64,000 nucleotides of DNA from a virus, in the IMG/VR virus record IMGVR_UViG_3300025864_000001, positions 14,469-78,468 of that record; one strand, 5' to 3'. A program made the position numbers and the translations under genes. The notes beneath the pieces were generated by a model that saw only the letters and a list, made by a program, of their open reading frames with translations, ran no database searches and was not told the origin of the DNA. Numbering within the stretch: position 1 is the stretch's first letter; the number at the start of each line of letters is the position of its first letter. This document shows positions 3,239-55,661 of the stretch, one piece after another.

Positions 3239-4105
3239 TCAGAGGTTATTTTTCTTACAAAAATCATTTATCCGGTAGAACATCTCGGGGGCATCATCAA
3301 GAAGGCGCATCCTCACACGTGCCATATTACCCCTGTCTGTCTTAGTTGTACCCCAATAATGGGTATATTTATGACGGGCATCTTGTCCGGCTTTTACAGC
3401 ATCCTTATTGATGACCTTCACCTCTGGTCTTAACCCGTGTGCTTTTATCAGCGATGCAGCAAAATACTGCTCATGGAATAGATTCTGGTGTATTACGATA
3501 TCGCCATACTTCTTGAAAAACAAGTTTTGGTTCTCCGGTGCAAAGATATACTCCGCACTACATTTTATCCACTCTTTAAAGAACTCCATGTCGTGGCCAC
3601 CACATATGCCACAGTTATAGGCGAAGTCTGTAACTTTATTATCTTTAATTATCTGAGGCTTAACAGGTGCTTTGTCAAAACACGGTCTTAACAAATCATA
3701 GTAATGGTATCCCTTTAAGTGCATTGGCTCATGCGACTGAAAACACAAACGTGCATTTAATATCCGTGGTGGTAATGGGTCAAAGAGAAACACATCATTA
3801 TCGAGATGTACAAACGGCACGGTCTGTTCGTTGTACGCGAGTAACTTACCGTATGCCCAGAAGTATTTGGACACGGATTTCATCTCATTGAGCTTATCGG
3901 AATAGCTTGTTATTGGCAATCCGAGAGGTTTTATAACATCGAGACCCCATTGAGATGAAATAAACTGCACCTCCTTAAAATGACGGGAGGCGCAGAGTAC
4001 TGAGAGTGCTGTAGTGAATAGAAAATCACTATACTTCACGAATCCACATCTATTGCCGAAGGATTCATCTGGATTGAAGTATGAGAATACTGCTTTTTTT
4101 ATCAT
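3239..4105 (-). CDS. DUF6734-like putative GT-A glycosyltransferase
   Basis: FWAYGKLLAY..Q..PFVHLDNDVFL (DxD), YNCGICGG and EQY motifs. Confidence 0.65.
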   Translation of the reverse strand: MIKKAVFSYFNPDESFGNRCGFVKYSDFLFTTALSVLCASRHFKEVQFISSQWGLDVIKPLGLPITSYSDKLNEMKSVSKYFWAYGKLLAYNEQTVPFVHLDNDVFLFDPLPPRILNARLCFQSHEPMHLKGYHYYDLLRPCFDKAPVKPQIIKDNKVTDFAYNCGICGGHDMEFFKEWIKCSAEYIFAPENQNLFFKKYGDIVIHQNLFHEQYFAASLIKAHGLRPEVKVINKDAVKAGQDARHKYTHYWGTTKTDRGNMARVRMRLLDDAPEMFYRINDFCKKNNL

Positions 4106-4126
4106 AGTCTTTGCCGGATTAGATTA

Positions 4127-4369
4127 TTACACCCATCCGTGTCCAATCGCATCACCATAACTGGTGTACGTGGTGGTACCTCCACACAGAACAGCGATAG
4201 CCTCAGCATAACGCCAGTCCCATTCACTCTTACTTACAGCGATGACGCAGTGGTGCATCTGGTGCCACTGAGCTCCTTCTTTCGGTCCATGTGTCGTATG
4301 CGCTGTAACAGTGTTTAAGACACAGACACGGGCTTTCAGGAAAATCCTTGCTTTGACATTGTAAGCCAT
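4127..4369 (-). CDS. small protein ending in a YGDAIG motif, possible virion accessory
   Basis: 80 aa; N-terminus resembles that of the upstream FN3 protein; C-terminus SYGDAIGHGWV. Confidence 0.6.
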   Translation of the reverse strand: MAYNVKARIFLKARVCVLNTVTAHTTHGPKEGAQWHQMHHCVIAVSKSEWDWRYAEAIAVLCGGTTTYTSYGDAIGHGWV

Positions 4370-4411
4370 GATTGCAAATTTTAAGTTAAAAAACTATGAT
4401 TAAGAAAAAAA

Positions 4412-4936
4412 TTACACTGCTAATGTGGTAAATGATTTGACAATACCATACTGGGTCATGTTCGCGCTGGTTACAGTCTTTACCCTGTAATAATACTTGG
4501 TGTTTGCTGTTAATCCTGCAAGCACTGCTGTCACGGGAGATAAAGTTGCAGATGTTAGTGCACTTTCACCGGCGGTGGCACTTGTTCCAAGTTCTTTTGT
4601 GGTGCCATACTCAAAGGTCACAACGGTTGATACGCTATGGGTGTTTGCAGATCCTTTCAGCGTTGCTCCAGTTGCAGTTATTGAACCCGCTTCATTGGTA
4701 ACAGCTACCGCAGGCACATCAAGATCCAGTTCATAGCCATCAGCCAGCACCAATGCTGCATTGGAAAGGCGTGTTTGCAGTTCATCCCAAGGCAACTCTA
4801 TCTCCGGCATGTCGGCAATGATCTTGCCCTGTGTGCCTTGTCTGCCAGGACGGCTACCTGATTTCGTTCTTTCCCCAACTTCTATGGTGAGAACATTTAT
4901 TCTGAGTTTTACTCTAACATCTCTTACGATACTCAT
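4412..4936 (-). CDS. fibronectin type III domain protein, probable virion decoration
   Basis: ITATGATLKG..FEYGTT..LAGLTANTKYYYRV..YG..KSFTT FN3 pattern. Confidence 0.75.
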   Translation of the reverse strand: MSIVRDVRVKLRINVLTIEVGERTKSGSRPGRQGTQGKIIADMPEIELPWDELQTRLSNAALVLADGYELDLDVPAVAVTNEAGSITATGATLKGSANTHSVSTVVTFEYGTTKELGTSATAGESALTSATLSPVTAVLAGLTANTKYYYRVKTVTSANMTQYGIVKSFTTLAV

Positions 4937-14167: not shown

Positions 14168-14517
14168 GAAAAAAGCAAATTTTCGTTCAAACGCAGGGTG
14201 TAGATAAGAACAGGGTCTCCCCCTTTAAGCCTATGGGCTTTGTTGCGCTTAATTTTGACAATATCAAAATGACTATTGATGCGTATGATTATTCAGGTGT
14301 GCTTGCTGAACCACGTGAGGACTCTCTTGTTGAGATCATGGACGAAAAAGAAGTATTTCAATTCACCCCTGCACAATTACTGCAAGCAATAAGATTTTTT
14401 CAACGCTATGCCGAAATGGGGAAGGATGTGGTGCGCTTTAAGAACATCTTCCATGTCATTATGCCAGACAGGTATAAGAATGCCTTACAAGTCACGAAAC
14501 GAGGTCTTAAATTTTGA
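14164..14517 (+). CDS. hypothetical protein
   Basis: 117-aa ORF with ATGA coupling. Confidence 0.65.
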   Translation: MRKKQIFVQTQGVDKNRVSPFKPMGFVALNFDNIKMTIDAYDYSGVLAEPREDSLVEIMDEKEVFQFTPAQLLQAIRFFQRYAEMGKDVVRFKNIFHVIMPDRYKNALQVTKRGLKF

Positions 14518-45452: not shown

Positions 45453-48263
45453 TTAAATATTTCGTTCGCTTGGTGTTGAAAATATTACTATCGAATCAAT
45501 TCTTACTTTCTCATCGTGTTCCTCGGTGTTCAACTTCACAAAACAGTATCTTCCTCTCATTGCCCTTCCATTCATCTTTCTGTCATTAAGACTTATAAAA
45601 CTACCCTTTGAGTTTTCATCTTTAAGTACCTCTCCAAAGAACACCCCTTCTCTCCTGTCCCAAATCGGAACATTGCTTTCCATGATGTCATTGCCTCCCG
45701 ATGCTTCTGTGGGTATGTAAACATATTTGGGTAATGAGTTCATCTCGTGATCTGCAAACAGCGCAATCGCATTATAAACCTTATTCCTGACAGGTTCTAT
45801 GTTCGACACAACCTCTATCTCTGCATAAGTAGGCACTCCGACCCATGAAAGATAATCCTGTCCCTCATCAACATTCATTATCCAAACCCTTTGATGATAC
45901 AAATGTGCGAAGAAATTTCCTAAGTGGACGTATGATTCGGTTATTTGATTGATTCGCGATATGTACCGACCCTGCTTCTCACTGAAAATAACACCCCGTA
46001 CCTCGTCTCCCATCCTGAACGTCAACCATATCTCATCATGCTCATTATTAGCACCTGTGCGTGTCTCTAAGGTCTTACCGCCACCGTTTGCCTGTATCCA
46101 CTTAATAAGGTCTTTGAACCACCGCTTCATCTTAATATCCAAGACTATCTGACCATTGGGTGCTGACCGAATAAATTTACCCTGTGAGTGATCCCAATAA
46201 TAAAGATTCCTGCCATTGACCATGATACTATCGGGGTGCTGACATCCATAATCCGATTCCATAGGTCGTTGTTCTGCAAGGAACTTATCTGTAAGGGTGA
46301 ACTGCTCCGTGCCATCAGGATTAAAAGTCTGTATGCGGTTGATGTAGATGCTCGTCTCTTTATACATCTGAATGACTTTCAGCGTGTATCCTACCTCCCT
46401 GAGTCCTGTAATATCACCGTTCCTCTTTGGTAAGTCCATAAAGTCATCAAAAGTAAAATGAGCGATGTTGTTTGTCCGCGTGCCGGTTATCAGGAATCCA
46501 CCGTGGCGTATTCTCTCATCCAACACCCTCTGTCTCTGACTGAGATCGTCAAGGAACGGAAATCCTATGGATGTTAGTCTATTTGTAACAATCTGGTCTC
46601 TCCACCAATCGCTCGGGAACATGCTCTCGGCCCAGAATGGTTGTATCTCGGTTGACTCAAACTTATAGTTTAGTCTATAATATTTCCAACTATCATTTGC
46701 AGTATTATTAACCTCGGCAGCAACAATACATACTCCATTTGCATCGAAGGACTGATCAACGTCTCCTTTATGATACCTATTGCCAAATACATCAGTTGCA
46801 ATATCAAATACCATCCCCGTGCCATAAGCAACCGTCTGAGACAGTCCTTTACGTGGTCGATAAACCTCTACAAGAATATTAGTTTCGTTGACAAATAGAT
46901 TAGGGCGGTGTGTAGCTTGAAAAATCAACCAATCACCACCAATAGGTTCTTCATCGTACTGAGTTCCTGTTGCTTCAATCTCATAATCATAAACGAACCC
47001 GCCACCAATGGCCTCTCCATAATATGTTGTCTGATTAATAATTCCCATAAGCCTTAACCGATCTCCTGCGAGCCAATCATAAGGGGGCACTCTCCACCTA
47101 TTATTTTGAGTCTGCGTCCATACAATAGTATCTGCAATATTTAATGAGAATCGGTTCACTGCGCCTGCAAGTGCGGTAATATTATTTGCCCTCATCTGCA
47201 AAAAATAATCCATAGAGACGTTACCAAAATAAACTATCTCATAAGACTCTGCCCATGAAGGAGGTTTATGATTAATCTTAAAGACCAGTTTTGCTATTGT
47301 CTCAAAAAGATTATTAGAATCTTCCGAATAGAAAGGTATATAAACTGTAAATATTGGTGTTTTAATTACGGAACAACACCTCCCTGCCCGATCTTTATAT
47401 ACTATTCCAAAAGCATGAGTAGCACCACATTTAAGAATCGGAAAAGTTACTGTATTGCCATAAGAGAGAATGTATGCGGCAAAATAAAAATCTTTAAATA
47501 CTGTGGTTACGTCTCCCGCTTCAAGTGTCGGTGTTTGCTTAAATAGTCTGTATCTTGTGTATATCCATATAGAATGCCCATCTGCGGAAACACCTACATA
47601 TTCAAATCCTCTTGCATTAAGATCGACAATAAGTCCTCCTACAACTGTTGTATAAATATCTCCGGGTGCTGCTGTATATGATGCGGTCATATTGGCAATA
47701 CCCTCCGAGTCATTCTCTACAGTGATATTATAAGATGATCCTTCTACAATTATATCAGGAATTGTCACTACGGCAACACCTACTATCTTACGAAAGGTCA
47801 TCTCCCCTACCCTACCTAACTGATACCAATAAAGATTAGCAGGGTCACCAACACCACTTGATTCAGGTATCTGCCCTATTGGAGAAGTTGCTATACAGGC
47901 ATAGTAATACGCATTATAAGTAACTACATCGCCTTTATAATACTGAGTAAAATCATTCCATACGGGTGCTACTGAATTTGCTATTGTTGTGCCAATTTGA
48001 TGAAACGTCAATGCAAGATCAGTTCTCGGAGACCGTAACGACACATTCTCATAAGAGAGTTCAACCTCTATATTCGCCTCAACAACATCATAACCCTCGG
48101 TGATCTTACCAAACACCACGGCATTGCCTCCTACAAGTTCCATGTGACCTGCTACAATAGGCACATAGGTAAATGGCTCTGCGATACTGCTTGCAGGAAT
48201 GATCTCCTTTACCCTGTCATTGTAAAAGGCTACGTCAATATCCGTGTTGTGAGAACCAATCAT
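45453..48263 (-). CDS. tail muzzle/stabilisation protein, C-terminal part (CBM5/12-like insert)
   Basis: FYND, FGIVYKDRAGR, KPPSWAESY, GDITGL, DYGCQHPDS, RREG.F, GRAMRGRY motifs of crAss-type stabilisation proteins. Confidence 0.8.
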   Translation of the reverse strand: MIGSHNTDIDVAFYNDRVKEIIPASSIAEPFTYVPIVAGHMELVGGNAVVFGKITEGYDVVEANIEVELSYENVSLRSPRTDLALTFHQIGTTIANSVAPVWNDFTQYYKGDVVTYNAYYYACIATSPIGQIPESSGVGDPANLYWYQLGRVGEMTFRKIVGVAVVTIPDIIVEGSSYNITVENDSEGIANMTASYTAAPGDIYTTVVGGLIVDLNARGFEYVGVSADGHSIWIYTRYRLFKQTPTLEAGDVTTVFKDFYFAAYILSYGNTVTFPILKCGATHAFGIVYKDRAGRCCSVIKTPIFTVYIPFYSEDSNNLFETIAKLVFKINHKPPSWAESYEIVYFGNVSMDYFLQMRANNITALAGAVNRFSLNIADTIVWTQTQNNRWRVPPYDWLAGDRLRLMGIINQTTYYGEAIGGGFVYDYEIEATGTQYDEEPIGGDWLIFQATHRPNLFVNETNILVEVYRPRKGLSQTVAYGTGMVFDIATDVFGNRYHKGDVDQSFDANGVCIVAAEVNNTANDSWKYYRLNYKFESTEIQPFWAESMFPSDWWRDQIVTNRLTSIGFPFLDDLSQRQRVLDERIRHGGFLITGTRTNNIAHFTFDDFMDLPKRNGDITGLREVGYTLKVIQMYKETSIYINRIQTFNPDGTEQFTLTDKFLAEQRPMESDYGCQHPDSIMVNGRNLYYWDHSQGKFIRSAPNGQIVLDIKMKRWFKDLIKWIQANGGGKTLETRTGANNEHDEIWLTFRMGDEVRGVIFSEKQGRYISRINQITESYVHLGNFFAHLYHQRVWIMNVDEGQDYLSWVGVPTYAEIEVVSNIEPVRNKVYNAIALFADHEMNSLPKYVYIPTEASGGNDIMESNVPIWDRREGVFFGEVLKDENSKGSFISLNDRKMNGRAMRGRYCFVKLNTEEHDEKVRIDSIVIFSTPSERNI

Positions 48264-48264
48264 T

Positions 48265-48717
48265 TTAACTTATATAAATTAGGCCAAGGGTGTTCCACTT
48301 TATTGTGCTTGTGCCATTATTGACTACTTCGTTACCGGTTATGTCTCCCGTGAACTCTATCTGGGCCCTTATTTTTGATGTTGCCTGAACACCTGTGTTC
48401 TCAAACAAAATACCAAATTTATAATTCAGCGTGGCTCCGGGACCAATAACCTTATCATCTAAGTCGAGATAATAGTTATACACTCCTGCACTCGGACTAT
48501 GCTCTACCGATATCTTGCCTGAGACAGCCACTCCACCTGTGGTGTATTTACCACCGACATCAGTAATCTCTTTTGCCACAACATCAGATACAAATTGCTG
48601 TGTGCTGGCATTGGGAACATGTGTGCTATTGAGAAGCATGAGATACAATGTCTCCGCGACAAACTTATCAGCGACTTCTTTTTTTACAAACTTTGGAATA
48701 CAACTTAAATTTGCCAT
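48265..48717 (-). CDS. small virion (minor tail-type) protein inserted in the split muzzle locus
   Basis: LMLL...VSDVVAKEI..GKYTTGG..LDLDD..GT.TIKWN..G pattern. Confidence 0.65.
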   Translation of the reverse strand: MANLSCIPKFVKKEVADKFVAETLYLMLLNSTHVPNASTQQFVSDVVAKEITDVGGKYTTGGVAVSGKISVEHSPSAGVYNYYLDLDDKVIGPGATLNYKFGILFENTGVQATSKIRAQIEFTGDITGNEVVNNGTSTIKWNTLGLIYIS

Positions 48718-48729
48718 ATCATTATATTT

Positions 48730-50373
48730 TTATGTCCATCTACCATAAAAAGTTTCATATACACGACCCTCCCCGACCCTGTCAGCATAGAAGGTAACAT
48801 AATCTCCACTGGTGTAATCTCCTGTATAATAGAGTTCAATTTCAGTAGCAGAAAGTATATTATAAACATGTATCCAGTCATTTTCAGATGGCCATAATAT
48901 ACCCCATGAGTCACCAGTTGTGGTTACTGTAATTGTTTTTCTATGACCTTCTCCTGCACCTTCGAAGTTCCATGAAGCAGGACTAATTGAAATTGACAAA
49001 GCAGTACTATAAGTGGTTGTAAGCGTTGCGGTAGTGGAATTTGCACCCGTGCCACCGGTACTATAAGCCCTTACACGATAATAGTAGAATGTATGCTCAG
49101 TTAATCCAATAACATCAGCATTTAGAACAGTGCCAAGAATCTTGCTATCATATCCTGCTACAAACGTGGCAAAATTATCAGTAGACACGTCAAGATAATA
49201 TCCTACTGCCCCTGATACTGCCTGCCATTTAGCCCTGAAACTTGTTGACAAGACATTATCTGCACCCATATTTATTGGCACACCAAAACTCACGTTCTCC
49301 ACGGTTGGAATCATCACCGCCATAGTTAAGGTTATATATCCCGGTTCAGATGTTACTGATACCTCTCCACCACGTTCCTGTTCTTCAAACTTATTGATAG
49401 TCTCAATCAGGAACCACTTGGATGGGTCTTGGCTACTCCTGCCTATGATCTCTATGGCACGTACTTCTTCTCCACCTGAGTTAACCTTTATGTTTAATTG
49501 ATTATTCAGTGAGATCATCTCATTAGCGAGTCCGGTGGCTGTTTCTTCTTCTGCCTGTGGCACGGGAACGATACTTGCAGGAGAAAAGGTACTCTTTCTC
49601 CAATCCATGTACACATAGCGATATGCCACCTGAAATAATGTCTGCCTGAGATTATTTATCTTACGTTTATCATCCGATTCATAACTCACTACTGGCGGGT
49701 GTACGGGTGGCACGGGTTCAAAGTAAAAGTTCTTAACATCCATCGAGTAATACGCATCCTCAATAAGACAAAGCCTTGTCCAATACGTGCCAACATCAAG
49801 TACAAAACTGTCTGTCCTTGGCTCATGTCCGAGATTATTATGAATACGACTCTTGTAGAAGTTATTGCCATTACTGACAATCTGATCAATGCCATAGGTG
49901 TCTATTGCACTCCACTCCACTGTCACCGGATACTGACCATAGCCAATCTTATAATAGAAGGATTTTTTGGCACGTGCGATATCCATCTGATAGATAGGAT
50001 TCAGGTTATCCGTCCACACGAGTCTGCCATGCACCACACGGGCATTGTAAATCTTATGATCTCTGTCAAAGCCAATATCATTGTACTTATCGTAGTACAC
50101 CACTACCTGTTCCCTGGTGTCAATGTTTATCTCTATTATCCATGCTCCTCCAAGTAACGTATCAATATAAAATACATATAGGCATCTCATCTCTGGGTCA
50201 ATGCAATTACCACACAGGAGAATATTTGTGATGTACGAGGGGATATTAGTAGGACTAAGGGTATTGGTGTCCTTAATAAGCCTCACCGACCTGAAATAAG
50301 TCTTTAATGCAGATGTCTTTGTGGCTGCTGCGCTTGTACTTGAAAGGGATAATATCTTTGCGTAATCACTCAT
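48730..50373 (-). CDS. tail muzzle protein, middle part, with a FISUMP C-terminal strand, CBM-like, FN3 and BACON-like domains
   Basis: LVWTDNLNP, FQVAYRYVY.D..S.FSP.S muzzle motifs; FN3 SFRAKWQAVSGA.GY.LDVS..YYYRVRAY; likely start ATG 50373. Confidence 0.75.
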   Translation of the reverse strand: MSDYAKILSLSSTSAAATKTSALKTYFRSVRLIKDTNTLSPTNIPSYITNILLCGNCIDPEMRCLYVFYIDTLLGGAWIIEINIDTREQVVVYYDKYNDIGFDRDHKIYNARVVHGRLVWTDNLNPIYQMDIARAKKSFYYKIGYGQYPVTVEWSAIDTYGIDQIVSNGNNFYKSRIHNNLGHEPRTDSFVLDVGTYWTRLCLIEDAYYSMDVKNFYFEPVPPVHPPVVSYESDDKRKINNLRQTLFQVAYRYVYMDWRKSTFSPASIVPVPQAEEETATGLANEMISLNNQLNIKVNSGGEEVRAIEIIGRSSQDPSKWFLIETINKFEEQERGGEVSVTSEPGYITLTMAVMIPTVENVSFGVPINMGADNVLSTSFRAKWQAVSGAVGYYLDVSTDNFATFVAGYDSKILGTVLNADVIGLTEHTFYYYRVRAYSTGGTGANSTTATLTTTYSTALSISISPASWNFEGAGEGHRKTITVTTTGDSWGILWPSENDWIHVYNILSATEIELYYTGDYTSGDYVTFYADRVGEGRVYETFYGRWT

Positions 50374-50375
50374 AA

Positions 50376-52175
50376 TTAAATATCTCTCATACACCTCACT
50401 GAAAATCCATTATGCTTATTATTATTGTTTTCAATGCAACTAATTAATGTTGACTGTATATCTCTGGTATATGCAGTCGTTCCTGCACTTTGAGGAGTGG
50501 TCCAGTAAGACGATAGTGTATTTATACCACTGAAAGTTCCCACGGTATTCCTCATGCCTCCCCCTACTGCCTTGAAACCAATTTCATCTGAAGCACCTGT
50601 GTTTGGCGTATTCCAATGGATTAATCCCATTTCCTTTAATTTTCCCCCTGCGACACCTGTTCCGCCTAATGCTGCTATTAAAGTATTATAGTCGGTTCTC
50701 GTACCAACTCTCCATCCATTAGATGCTATTCCTAATTGTTGGAATTGCCCATCTGCGGCTAACCCATGAGCATTATTTATTCCATACCAATCATAGAGAG
50801 CACCGTAATCCTTGTTTATTATGTCGTTATTATACCAACAATATGCTCCTATCACATCTGCGGCCCAATCGCCATTAACGTTTAGGTTTGGGACTACCGA
50901 ACCATCAGCATACTTTGTAGTCTTTAGGTTTTCCACGAGCCATTCCTGATTACCAATAATTACAGTATGGTATTCGTTGCCGTCAATATCAATAATTCCA
51001 TCCGGTGCTTCATCTGCCAGCCATAATAATCCTGTACTACCCAATAGATCATAGACAAGATCACTTCCAATAGCTGCACCGTAATAGAGAGAATTATCTA
51101 TAATTAAATCATTACAAAGTTTAGCCGCGCTGGCTGTATGTCCTACCTGATTAATTATTGCTGTGGTATTTGCTTGTCCTGTGCCTATTAAAGTGCCGGT
51201 TCCTGCAAATCCAGAAATAACATTACTCCAGTCAGAAGGAATTAAGTCGTTTAATGCAGCTTCTAAATAATCATTTCCTGATTTCCAAAAGATCAATCCT
51301 CCAGCAGGGCCTATATCTCTTAAATTATAAACAGTAGTTGAAGTAAAGGCACGACAAGGACGGAATCTGTTACTTTCGTTTTTAAATATATTTCCATATT
51401 GAACTCCATCCCCAAAAGATTGAACCCATATTATAGATTCAGATGGGTGTGTTGTTTCTGATGATGTGAGATATAATGTATTTGAATAATCACCCATTAT
51501 ATCATAAAATCCACCAATTCCATGCAAATGGAGTTCAGTATACATTGCATTTAACTCATCCTTTGAAGGAAGGAACCAATCACTATATGAAAAATAAGGT
51601 GAAATAATATCCATCCCAAAGCCTCCTCCTGGCATTGCTTTGAAGCCACTGCTGTCCGTTGCTACTGTGTGCGGATCATCCCACCAACCAATATCTTTTA
51701 GTTTGTCTCCTGCTACTGCCGCACCAAGTAGGTTTAAAATCAGCGTAGTAACTTCTGCTTCTGTCGGTACATGCCATCCCTCTGGACAAAAATCTGATGC
51801 TAAAATCTGATCATGCGTGTATAGTCCTCCAAAGACATCCCTGTTGTTCTCATCATCATTATAGACTTTGCTTCCGGGATAATTGGCATCCCAATTCTTT
51901 TTCATCCAGACTTGATTGCCAATTTTACATTCTAAAAATCCTGAATAGACGAATTGTCCACCAATGGCAGACCCGTAATAAGTTATTGCTGAATCAGGAT
52001 TTATAAGTATTTCGATTTCCGACTGGAGTGTTTCTGCAGGACCTTCGCCATGTTGCTGATCACTGCCACCCGTACGCACGTTTAACGCATCAGGATAATC
52101 CGAAGGCGGAAGATTTGCAGGATTGTCATCTGTGTTCAATCCTCCACGAAAGTCATGTAAGTCTTTCAGTTGCAT
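50376..52175 (-). CDS. muzzle N-terminus fused to FISUMP / permuted DUF1566 / FISUMP domains
   Basis: F.GGLNTDD..L...DY.DALNVR start; IGNQVWM..N, CPEGWHVP, GFSVRCMRD; DWFLPSKDEL, GPAGG. Confidence 0.8.
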   Translation of the reverse strand: MQLKDLHDFRGGLNTDDNPANLPPSDYPDALNVRTGGSDQQHGEGPAETLQSEIEILINPDSAITYYGSAIGGQFVYSGFLECKIGNQVWMKKNWDANYPGSKVYNDDENNRDVFGGLYTHDQILASDFCPEGWHVPTEAEVTTLILNLLGAAVAGDKLKDIGWWDDPHTVATDSSGFKAMPGGGFGMDIISPYFSYSDWFLPSKDELNAMYTELHLHGIGGFYDIMGDYSNTLYLTSSETTHPSESIIWVQSFGDGVQYGNIFKNESNRFRPCRAFTSTTVYNLRDIGPAGGLIFWKSGNDYLEAALNDLIPSDWSNVISGFAGTGTLIGTGQANTTAIINQVGHTASAAKLCNDLIIDNSLYYGAAIGSDLVYDLLGSTGLLWLADEAPDGIIDIDGNEYHTVIIGNQEWLVENLKTTKYADGSVVPNLNVNGDWAADVIGAYCWYNNDIINKDYGALYDWYGINNAHGLAADGQFQQLGIASNGWRVGTRTDYNTLIAALGGTGVAGGKLKEMGLIHWNTPNTGASDEIGFKAVGGGMRNTVGTFSGINTLSSYWTTPQSAGTTAYTRDIQSTLISCIENNNNKHNGFSVRCMRDI

Positions 52176-52954
52176 TAGCGTTTGGGTGCCTGATAATAAG
52201 ATCCATAAACATATTGTAAATATTCTGAAGCAGTAAACTCCTGTTGAAAGTCACGGAGTGCAGCTATTTCCTTATCGTGCTGTTCTTCCAATCTGAATTT
52301 TGCATTAAAAGCCACCCTTGGGTCATTCTCGTCTTTTTTCCACAAGACATAAGTCCTGAGTGCTGCAACACATTCACGTGGGATAAGCGAACCTCCTCCT
52401 ATGCGAAGTCCTGATGAGATGTATTCAAGTACAATTTCTGAACGTGGTGTCTCTCCTGAGAATACCAACTGGTGATTTTCTCTGTCAACTCTGAATCCGG
52501 CAACGTCAATGCCTCCGGGAAGTCCATACAGTCCACCAATAAAAGAGCCGTTACGCCAGTGATCTTGGAAATAGATTGCTCCTGCGACTGCGGTTATATC
52601 ATTGATTGTTGTATTGCCTATTGCCGTGCCATCATCATCGAAAACCCTTGGCAGTAAGATATTGTCATTGCGTGTTATCACTTTGAGACTGCCATTAATC
52701 GGATATCCTATTTTGAGATAATCCACATAATCGGCAGGTAACGCACATGTTTTTCCAAGTGACATGTGAAGATATACGACTTCGGAACCCGCATCGAGAT
52801 GAAAGAGTGATAACTCCTCTGAGAAGCCTTCAATGGCTATCTGTGTAAATCGCATATACTGCTTCATTGTATAGTCCTGCAACCTGTTTAATACAGACAT
52901 CACGACATATCTTATCGTCACAAGCCCTGCTGATTTTGGTATCGCTGTACTCAT
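52175..52954 (-). CDS. tail ring/tubular protein (P22 gp4-like)
   Basis: LPADYVDYLKIG, IVLEYISSG; directly upstream of the muzzle locus. Confidence 0.7.
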   Translation of the reverse strand: MSTAIPKSAGLVTIRYVVMSVLNRLQDYTMKQYMRFTQIAIEGFSEELSLFHLDAGSEVVYLHMSLGKTCALPADYVDYLKIGYPINGSLKVITRNDNILLPRVFDDDGTAIGNTTINDITAVAGAIYFQDHWRNGSFIGGLYGLPGGIDVAGFRVDRENHQLVFSGETPRSEIVLEYISSGLRIGGGSLIPRECVAALRTYVLWKKDENDPRVAFNAKFRLEEQHDKEIAALRDFQQEFTASEYLQYVYGSYYQAPKR

Positions 52955-52956
52955 GG

Positions 52957-53652
52957 CTATTGGTTTTGAGGTTTAATTACCATATCATTTGCGGTGTCGG
53001 GCAATGGTTTTTTACTCATCAGGTCAACTACTTGACGTATGATATTATCTTCCATGCCACTCGGAATTGCCACATCATCATAATCGTCCACAACATCAAA
53101 TGGAGTTATTAACAGGATGTCAACACTCGTTATAAGTGTATCTGGTGCGACGGGTAGTTTTTCAAGCCATAACATATGACTTGGTTCGCCTGCACCGATA
53201 TTGACATTACTCTGCTCAAGTCTAAACGTAGGATAATCATCCATAGTGCTTACTTCCAACTCATCAAAGATAGCATTTGCCGTGGCTTCAATAGGTGCAA
53301 ATAGCCACTGATCTCCAATGGCGCCACCATAATACACAGAACACTCATAATGACTCTTTATCTGACGTATGCTCATCATGTCGGGTAACTGAACCGGTGC
53401 AAATGGCAGCAAGCAATAAGCTCTTGCGCCACACTGATTAACAACTGCGCATACATAAGTCTTGCTCCACGCATCGAGCTGACTGAAGTCACTGAATTTC
53501 TTCCCATTTAGCCACGTGTTGTATATTGCCTGATTGAATACATTGTTAAGATGTTGTTTCACAATCTCAGGATGGTAGATGCCTTTTGAATCCCCGGCAT
53601 TATCCGAACTCATGAAGTCCAATATGGTGTCGACCAAATTTATCTTTTTCAT
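52957..53652 (-). CDS. tail ring protein
   Basis: 231 aa in the ring-gene run; contains YYGGAIG. Confidence 0.6.
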   Translation of the reverse strand: MKKINLVDTILDFMSSDNAGDSKGIYHPEIVKQHLNNVFNQAIYNTWLNGKKFSDFSQLDAWSKTYVCAVVNQCGARAYCLLPFAPVQLPDMMSIRQIKSHYECSVYYGGAIGDQWLFAPIEATANAIFDELEVSTMDDYPTFRLEQSNVNIGAGEPSHMLWLEKLPVAPDTLITSVDILLITPFDVVDDYDDVAIPSGMEDNIIRQVVDLMSKKPLPDTANDMVIKPQNQ

Positions 53653-54878: not shown

Positions 54879-55661
54879 TTAGAAACCAAAAATCTTTGAT
54901 AGACAACCTTTCTTCTCAGGTTCAGGTGTTGGAGGTATTGGAGGAACTGGTACTGGTGGGTCGAAAGATTTTTGATCTATCGTAGTCCACAGCTCATATT
55001 GCATACCAAAATCATCATAAGACATGATACAATGACCTGCCTTCCCCCAATCGCTTCCCCATGAGTTCCTGATAATGAATCCTTCTTTATTATAACCACA
55101 TACACAGAGTGCATGACCTCCCAATAGATATTCTCCCGGATTTTTGAACCACATTCTCTCTGTATAATTATAAACAGGGACAGCAATGATACAAGGTCCA
55201 TTACTAAAAAGAGATATTTTCAGATCGTCAATGGTATCAATCGAACCATAATTGCTGATCTTATAAAGAGATGCGTTCATCAGAACTTCAATAGCCGGTA
55301 ATCCTTTTGTTCCATATGGGAACATAGGTTCAATACAATCGCCTTTCTCTTTTAATACCTCCATTAAGTCTCTCATAAACATCCCTTCTTCTGCAGGATC
55401 ATTCCTATTGTTGTAGATGAACTGAGGACTCATGTAATCATTCATATTGACATCAATACGTTCCTGCCACTCTTTCATTGCCGATCCTGCCATAGCTGCA
55501 CAGGAACCTTGATTACCTTGATCACGAATAGGAAACATCATTGACCGGTAATCAACAATCTCCGGTAATGCTACTTTAGGATAAATAGCAGATACCTTCC
55601 AGTCCCTTTTATCTCCGGGACTTGGAAGGACATTCAATTTGTATTGTGAAAAATCTTTCAT
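54879..55661 (-). CDS. papain-family (C1) cysteine peptidase
   Basis: RDQGNQGSCAA, GGHAL, IRNSWG. Confidence 0.9.
   Translation of the reverse strand: MKDFSQYKLNVLPSPGDKRDWKVSAIYPKVALPEIVDYRSMMFPIRDQGNQGSCAAMAGSAMKEWQERIDVNMNDYMSPQFIYNNRNDPAEEGMFMRDLMEVLKEKGDCIEPMFPYGTKGLPAIEVLMNASLYKISNYGSIDTIDDLKISLFSNGPCIIAVPVYNYTERMWFKNPGEYLLGGHALCVCGYNKEGFIIRNSWGSDWGKAGHCIMSYDDFGMQYELWTTIDQKSFDPPVPVPPIPPTPEPEKKGCLSKIFGF

Follow-up and report, generated by a model that had tools for sequence, protein, structure and literature searches.

Why should one short peptide recur, almost unchanged, in phage proteins that otherwise look unrelated? The question is raised by a 64-kb stretch of viral DNA (IMG/VR record IMGVR_UViG_3300025864_000001, positions 14,469 to 78,468; hereafter the window), which is part of a complete 78,468-bp (78.5-kb) genome with direct terminal repeats from an uncultured, crAss-related phage. 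A reading of the letters alone (the sequence-only reading) had pointed out five such peptides in two muzzle fragments, a ring protein and an 80-residue protein, and had proposed a docking or modification tag. All five peptides were found where they had been placed, on the minus strand and in frame within real open reading frames (ORFs). The coordinates given earlier cover a 7-residue core only; the motif is a 12-residue peptide with the core Y-G-x-A-I-G-x-x-F/W. The answer that we favour, tentatively and with somewhat less than even confidence, is that the motif would be a loop-plus-strand docking latch that ties the protein p599 to the rest of a divided muzzle and was later reused at other interfaces.

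The copies are distributed over four proteins, all encoded on the minus strand. The 599-residue p599 (50376..52175) carries two, copy a (YYGSAIGGQFVY, 51945..51980, residues 66-77) and copy b (YYGAAIGSDLVY, 51051..51086, residues 364-375). The 936-residue p936 (45453..48263), the C-terminal muzzle piece, has one at site 1 (YYGEAIGGGFVY, 46989..47024, residues 414-425) and a degenerate sixth copy at site 2 (YDEEPIGGDWLIF, 46920..46958, residues 436-448). The copy in p231 (52957..53652, 231 residues), a small tail protein that is probably a ring protein, is YYGGAIGDQWLF (53299..53334, residues 107-118), and p80 (4127..4369, 80 residues) ends with the 11 residues SYGDAIGHGWV (4130-4162).

A chance origin was ruled out by composition and by shuffling. 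From composition alone 0.003 matches to [YS]YG.AIG were expected against the 5 observed, and 0/3000 residue shuffles gave more than one match; the pattern was set post hoc, and the margin over chance is very large. The sequence-only reading had named chance frequency and a lack of conservation as grounds for giving it up, and we found the motif to be far above chance and conserved. A DNA-level repeat or mobile element was ruled out as well, by a DNA identity between copies of ~63-72%, by synonymous differences (GGG/GGT/GGA, GCC/GCT/GCG and TAC/TAT) and by the lack of out-of-frame or opposite-strand copies. Because the copies differ synonymously at this level of identity, the repeat is maintained at the peptide level; the motif is under selection as a peptide, as had been supposed from its codons. 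Searched in all six frames, the complete 78,468-bp genome gave no sixth exact match. With a position weight matrix made from homologues, for which the best of 20 shuffles scored 6-17 bits, the four tail copies scored 28-43 bits, and the matrix added one weak copy in p936, QYDEEPIGGDWLI, whose 14.4 bits lie inside the shuffle range; it revealed no further hidden copies in this genome. Our literature search found no published description of the motif in any form, in agreement with the earlier remark that it is undescribed.

The same residues are constrained wherever the motif has been kept. Numbered from the tyrosine, Y0, G1, I4, G5 and F/W8 show little or no variation in 31/31 homologues of p599, in 33/33 of the p231 homologues with the insertion described below and in 36/36 homologues of p80, and the x positions are free. 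Since five positions are fixed in three families that share nothing else, the motif points to one common structural or functional constraint, and the observation that otherwise unrelated proteins share the peptide holds.

What that constraint might be depends on where the motif lies in the tail. The muzzle protein of this phage, the homologue of crAss001 gp44, is split over adjacent genes, with the ring-joining domain and lectin domains on p599, the start of the propeller on p554 (48730..50394, minus strand), the middle piece, and the remainder on p936, which comprises an IG2 domain, a crass-domain region and propeller blades. The 1452 homologues of p936 are mostly one-piece proteins of 1100-1400 residues, whose C-terminal two thirds align to p936. 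A profile of the p936 family (43 sequences) matched gp44 (7qok_A) at an E-value of 6.6e-26 in N- and C-terminal stretches, and the AlphaFold2 model of p936 (predicted local distance difference test score, pLDDT, 85.4) had 7qok_A as its best Foldseek match (E 7.6e-21), followed by the nozzles of SU10, cyanophage A4, P22 (gp10) and T7 (gp12). These matches bear out the earlier identification of muzzle fragments as carriers of the motif. In addition, p554 and p936 have a collinear counterpart, with significant BLAST E-values, in the 1612-residue gp114 of Cellulophaga phage phi18:3, a virion protein verified by mass spectrometry; gp114 matches p599 only weakly (E 4.9), at a consistent position. 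A megablast search with this region gave no matches, and PDB sequence searches with p599, p231 and the p80 neighbour p288 gave nothing useful.

The split point was located with a hidden Markov model (HMM) trained on residues 1-140 of 76 one-piece homologues. Its positions 1-62 matched residues 1-62 of all listed members of the p599 family (E 1e-5 to 1e-11, Z=1e6), and positions 51-136 matched residues 35-130 of p554 (E 3e-12). The ring-joining domain, as described for gp44 (PMC10172136), and the propeller are therefore not on one polypeptide here: the former is on p599 and the propeller starts on p554. Because the matches of p599 and p554 are complementary, and their ORFs overlap, the muzzle gene has been divided at the propeller, directly after the ring-joining domain. 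p554 also contains an FN3 domain and matched phrog_14478 and fn3. Its listed start is a GTG that overlaps the end of p599, and an ATG at codon 8 (MSDYAKIL...) is a likelier start; its residues 1-34 have no counterpart in one-piece muzzle proteins. In p599 the N-terminal part is followed by copy a, by a short FISUMP domain with a nested Lcl_C/DUF1566 domain and copy b, and by a second, full FISUMP domain. The FISUMP assignment comes from PF09603, matched in two stretches (3.6e-43, 148 bits, cut-off 33.9), and TIGR02145 (155 bits, cut-off 41.65); PF07603 was also matched.

Copy a lies exactly at this break. It stands between the HMM-matched stretches of p599 and p554, directly past the ring-joining domain as well as the split point, and 5 residues before the first FISUMP domain. 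Its consensus, Y-Y-G-x-[AS]-I-G-G-x-F-[VI]-Y, was present in 31/31 homologues of the p599 N-terminus and in ~40 related loci, every one that covers the gene. At the same position the consensus of one-piece muzzle proteins reads 'kviGsaedkennaiiyfvy', with the motif opposite 'viGsaed', and p554, which begins at the first propeller strand (LLCGNCID...LYVFY), has LLCGNCIDPEMRCLYVFY aligned to it. Judged by its position, then, copy a would correspond to the first propeller strand of the one-piece proteins. This speaks against copy a being a free tag.

These observations underlie the latch that we propose. The motif would be a module of ~12 residues, specific to this clade, in which a tight glycine-containing loop (Y-G-x-[AS]-I-G-x-x) is followed by a beta-strand that starts at the Phe or Trp. 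Its universal tail copy sits where the muzzle is broken, and p554 begins with its own version of that strand; the motif strand may join the edge of a neighbouring beta-sheet, by strand complementation or beta-augmentation, and so form a non-covalent latch that would tie p599 to the remaining muzzle. The copies of the ring-like protein, the crass-domain region and the lectin loop would then be extra latches, acquired by particular lineages and kept by selection, and the C-terminus of p80 would be one more such latch. A precedent exists in the split nozzle of the Pseudomonas podophage A1002, in which gp39 (nozzle-rope) and gp42 (nozzle-base) each supply beta-strands lacking in the propeller or platform of the other (PMC13730344). 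There, as here, two proteins share a podophage nozzle, and the mechanism is the one that we propose for copy a; the complementation was seen by cryo-electron microscopy in A1002, whereas here we infer it, and no reuse of one peptide in other A1002 tail proteins has been reported. The location of copy a at the split and this precedent of strand exchange, together with the shared constraint, the loop-then-strand shape in the p936 model and the restriction of the motif to the clade, lead us to favour the latch. In keeping with it, every carrier whose place is known is part of the distal tail. Three of the copies are insertions or replacements.

Copy b has been inserted into one of the loops of the first FISUMP (lectin) domain. 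The canonical loop reads PGGKFD-LLFELLG, and the homologues P0003, P0005 and P0013 have PGGGFGMDVMYYGTAIGSDxVYDLLG at this site; the related loci L019 and L037 also have copy b. A further homologue (P0004, residues ~183-210) has the shorter PGGGFAIGSDFVYDLLG, which equals the second half of copy b without YYG and is either an intermediate in the building of the motif on site or a partial deletion. Two copies had been placed at domain-insertion junctions, which is roughly correct. The first FISUMP domain begins 5 residues past copy a, and in the window copy b directly follows a nested DUF1566-type domain; relatives without this nested domain have copy b too.

In p936 the motif region lies, by collinearity, in the crass-domain part of the muzzle. 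At site 1 the motif stands where the orthologues of most relatives have GVVTEYTD or GVLTLFDE, with a gain of 2 residues; the loci L010-L012 and L062-L064 also have it, as SYGEAIGSDYVY, in a lineage whose p231 lacks the insertion. Site 2 starts 10 residues after the end of site 1; close relatives have a native hairpin there that resembles the motif (YGEAIGVDWLLI, YGDVIGGDWLIF or YGAVIGDDWLLC), and in the window this hairpin has become degenerate. In the p936 model, the only confident one, site 1 is a loop (pLDDT ~65) that runs into the strand 425-436, and site 2 is a turn followed by the strand 439-449; both copies thus form the turn or loop and then the strand of one long hairpin. A hairpin-like shape may be expected of the copies outside p936 too. 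One of the contigs concerned (C687J13896_1000012, 216,338 bp, with L062-L064) contains the same tail locus 3 times at a spacing of 72,083 bp and is probably a concatemer-like assembly of a ~72-kb phage genome.

Because the crass and lectin domains are at the tail tip, the copies might instead form aromatic loops on the surface and bind to some host-surface component, with more copies giving higher avidity. Tyr and Trp or Phe beside Gly are frequent in glycan-binding sites. Within the muzzle, the crass-domain part is exposed in its loops and variable through insertions, and contact of these loops with the cell has been suggested (PMC10172136). The evidence for exposure of the motif is a single modelled loop with a pLDDT of 65, and we regard host binding as very unlikely to be the explanation.

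The distribution of the copies among relatives is uneven. Copy a and the p80 copy are universal, and site 1 of p936, copy b and the p231 copy are lineage-specific. Contigs differ in their combinations: L019 has the p231 insertion with copies a and b, L037 copies a and b, L024 the p231 insertion with copy a and site 2 only, and L010 copy a with sites 1 and 2. This co-occurrence is thinly sampled, most related contigs being short, with ~10 that are informative. When 150 representatives were taken from the wider muzzle family, only the two closest had the motif, and one other gave a match at chance level. The motif is thus limited to close relatives of the split-muzzle clade, and, with 0 true matches in the 147 representatives outside them, it is ruled out as a general feature of muzzles.

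That relatives manage without three of the sites is also what one would expect if the copies had no shared function at all. The motif might be a stable turn-plus-strand solution that originated in the muzzle N-terminus, spread into loops by illegitimate recombination or arose by local convergence, and was kept only because it folds well where it landed. Site 1 of p936 and copy b do resemble rewrites of existing hairpins, with P0004 as an intermediate form, and the invariant residues are typical of a turn and strand. Nevertheless, that five places should have converged on 9-12 identical residues is very improbable without a common constraint, and the p231 insertion has retained the same five residues as p599 and p80 over a deep divergence. 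We therefore consider this explanation unlikely.

The p231 copy is a clean insertion. Relative to the L001 and L002 orthologues, YYGGAIGDQW is a gain of 10 residues, the first 10 of the 12-residue motif. Among 120 of the homologues of p231 (181 in total), 33 have an insertion of 8-10 residues, in which Y, G, I, G and W are invariant and the other positions are free. In a quick tree, with the insertion columns kept in, 32 of the 33 carriers fell on one side of a branch with a Shimodaira-Hasegawa-like approximate likelihood ratio test (SH-aLRT) value of 98, and P0054 fell outside. Insertion-bearing homologues have also gained three cysteines near a histidine (NQC..AYC and HYxC; residues 73, 80, 101 and 104). 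Homologues without the insertion have V, A or D at the cysteine positions, and P0054 has the insertion with only one of the three cysteines. The Cys/His residues may pin the new loop through a disulfide or a zinc site. p231 is probably a ring protein, as named earlier, by similarity of language-model features only, the nearest ESM Atlas clusters carrying CrAss_Ring_2 or CrAss_Ring_3_4 (feature score 0.98). Neither p231 nor 69 of its homologues matched Pfam at E<=1, a p231 profile had no PDB match, and hhalign of p231 against p233 and p259 gave nothing.

The remaining copy lies far from the tail genes. All 36 of 36 p80 homologues keep ...Y-T-S-Y-G-D-A-I-G-H-G-W-[VIL], nearly always at the C-terminus and otherwise close to it; Y, I and G are invariant, and G, A and W nearly invariant. 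The p80 gene is present in 5/5 complete relatives and always lies between the genes for an FN3-like protein and a DUF6734 protein. In the window these neighbours are p174 and p288, and the order of the trio (3239-4936) was kept in 6/6 relatives examined. One relative, G001, has two tandem p80 paralogues (L087, G001:C1:57695-58447). We tried p80 as a fragment of the muzzle N-terminus and rejected it, the homology being limited to ~20 residues around the motif (6 bits). The DUF6734 protein p288 (3239..4105, minus strand), which we include for context and as no more than a candidate reader of the motif, matched PF20508 at 2.9e-42 and is 58-87% identical in relatives, a much higher conservation than that of the tail proteins; an HLDNDVF stretch in p288 recalls a DxD motif. 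Among GenBank phages we found no relatives of p231, p288 or p174. In the close relative L089 (JAENXA010000001.1, 72,687 bp), p288 is 87% and p80 79% identical, and the whole contig is binned in a Prolixibacteraceae metagenome-assembled genome; this binning points to a Bacteroidota host, as a lead rather than a proof.

Such a neighbourhood would suit a recognition tag, which is how the sequence-only reading had interpreted the peptide. The motif would then be read by one trans-acting partner, either a decoration or fibre protein or a tyrosine-modifying enzyme such as the DUF6734 protein, with p80 as its main substrate or a decoy. The identical pattern of constraint in unrelated folds and in a small protein outside the tail module is what such a tag would show, and the repeated independent gains in loops are like those of short linear motifs. 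The adjacency of p80 and the DUF6734 protein in 6/6 relatives and the unusual conservation of the latter (58-87% identity) also argue for it. Yet four bacterial DUF6734 loci have no p80-like neighbour and no motif-bearing neighbour of any kind, so a general DUF6734-p80 pair of enzyme and substrate is not supported, and for the DUF6734 family we found neither a paper nor a PDB relative from which a function could be taken. Gene content, synteny and family searches also yielded no candidate binding protein.

The genome does encode a glycan cassette, which counts in favour of a tag. This cassette (L083, 6508-11327, in genome bases before the window), which adjoins the terminase gene, contains GT11, an FkbM methyltransferase, a B12-radical SAM protein, GT2 and a GT25-like protein. 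A papain-like (papain-family cysteine) protease, p260 (window 54879-55661), is encoded inside the tail module. Among the complete relatives that keep copy a and p80, the B12-radical SAM protein and GT2 were absent from four or five and GT11 gave one distant match only, this phage (G000) serving as the positive control for the GT2 and GT11 searches; the protease was found only in G000. Because the cassette and the protease are absent from relatives that keep the motif, neither can be its reader, and both look like recent accessory acquisitions. A link of the glycan cassette to the universal copies is thereby ruled out, as is the motif as a substrate or inhibitor of p260. The chemical modification envisaged by the sequence-only reading finds no support here, and the invariant residues resemble a turn and strand rather than a simple sequon. 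Its docking half fares better: docking is plausible, and no decoration protein or other partner was found. These data leave the recognition tag an alternative that we judge improbable, less so than the folding explanation above.

Several points also weigh against the latch that we favour. The local HMM alignment ends at residue 62 of p599, so the homology of copy a to the first propeller strand has no statistical support; no structure or complex model shows a contact made by the motif, the AlphaFold2 model of p599 (pLDDT 39) being unusable. p554 retains its own first strand, and there is no visible gap for p599 to fill. A latch explains poorly why an identical sequence, and not just any strand, should be needed at five places, and it does not account for p80, which is encoded among replication and methylase genes. 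A portable attachment module pasted into loops of virion proteins is a further reading, and we hold this to be unlikely also; it might be a self-pairing hairpin 'Velcro', for which p80 would be a free cement protein able to bind any of the copies, or a tag read by the DUF6734 protein. All docking, by a latch or otherwise, is inferred here.

Comparison with known systems helps to separate what is familiar from what is new. Residues 1-62 of p599, p554 and p936 are collinear with crAss001 gp44 (7QOK/7QOL; Bayfield et al. 2023, PMC10172136) and have the same domain order of ring-joining, propeller, Ig-like and large distal domains. They differ from it in being split over at least 3 genes, in having lectin domains grafted behind the ring-joining domain, and in the motif, since YGxAIGxxF/W is absent from the wider muzzle family. 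Podophage fibres and tailspikes have N-terminal adaptors; the N-terminus of T7 gp17, for example, docks between adaptor and nozzle. As in these adaptors, where a short conserved segment fixes an exchangeable receptor-binding protein, p599 joins a conserved N-terminus to variable lectin modules; the adaptors, however, are N-terminal domains of one class of protein, not 12-residue modules inserted into loops of diverse proteins. Short linear motifs (SLiMs) are likewise short, have few invariant positions among free ones and are gained repeatedly at new places. As a rule, SLiMs are found in disordered regions and their reader domain is known, whereas the invariant residues here are hydrophobic or glycine, the context is beta-rich folded protein, and our searches yielded no reader. 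The muzzle and FISUMP families and split nozzles are known; what is new is a single short module at the split point that recurs, through separate insertions, in other proteins of the tail and in one small, conserved protein.

The tips of phage tails evolve through module swapping, but sequence rarely shows how a new piece is attached to an old hub. If the motif were only a favoured hairpin, it would still be a clear peptide-level repeat kept by selection across unrelated folds. If it is a portable module, one reusable 12-residue element would wire or mark the phage tail in a manner not described before. And were it a latch or a tag, the motif would amount to a compact device for attachment that can be transferred, which could explain how adhesion domains have been grafted onto the tails of crAss-related phages and could be used in laboratory strains for tail engineering.

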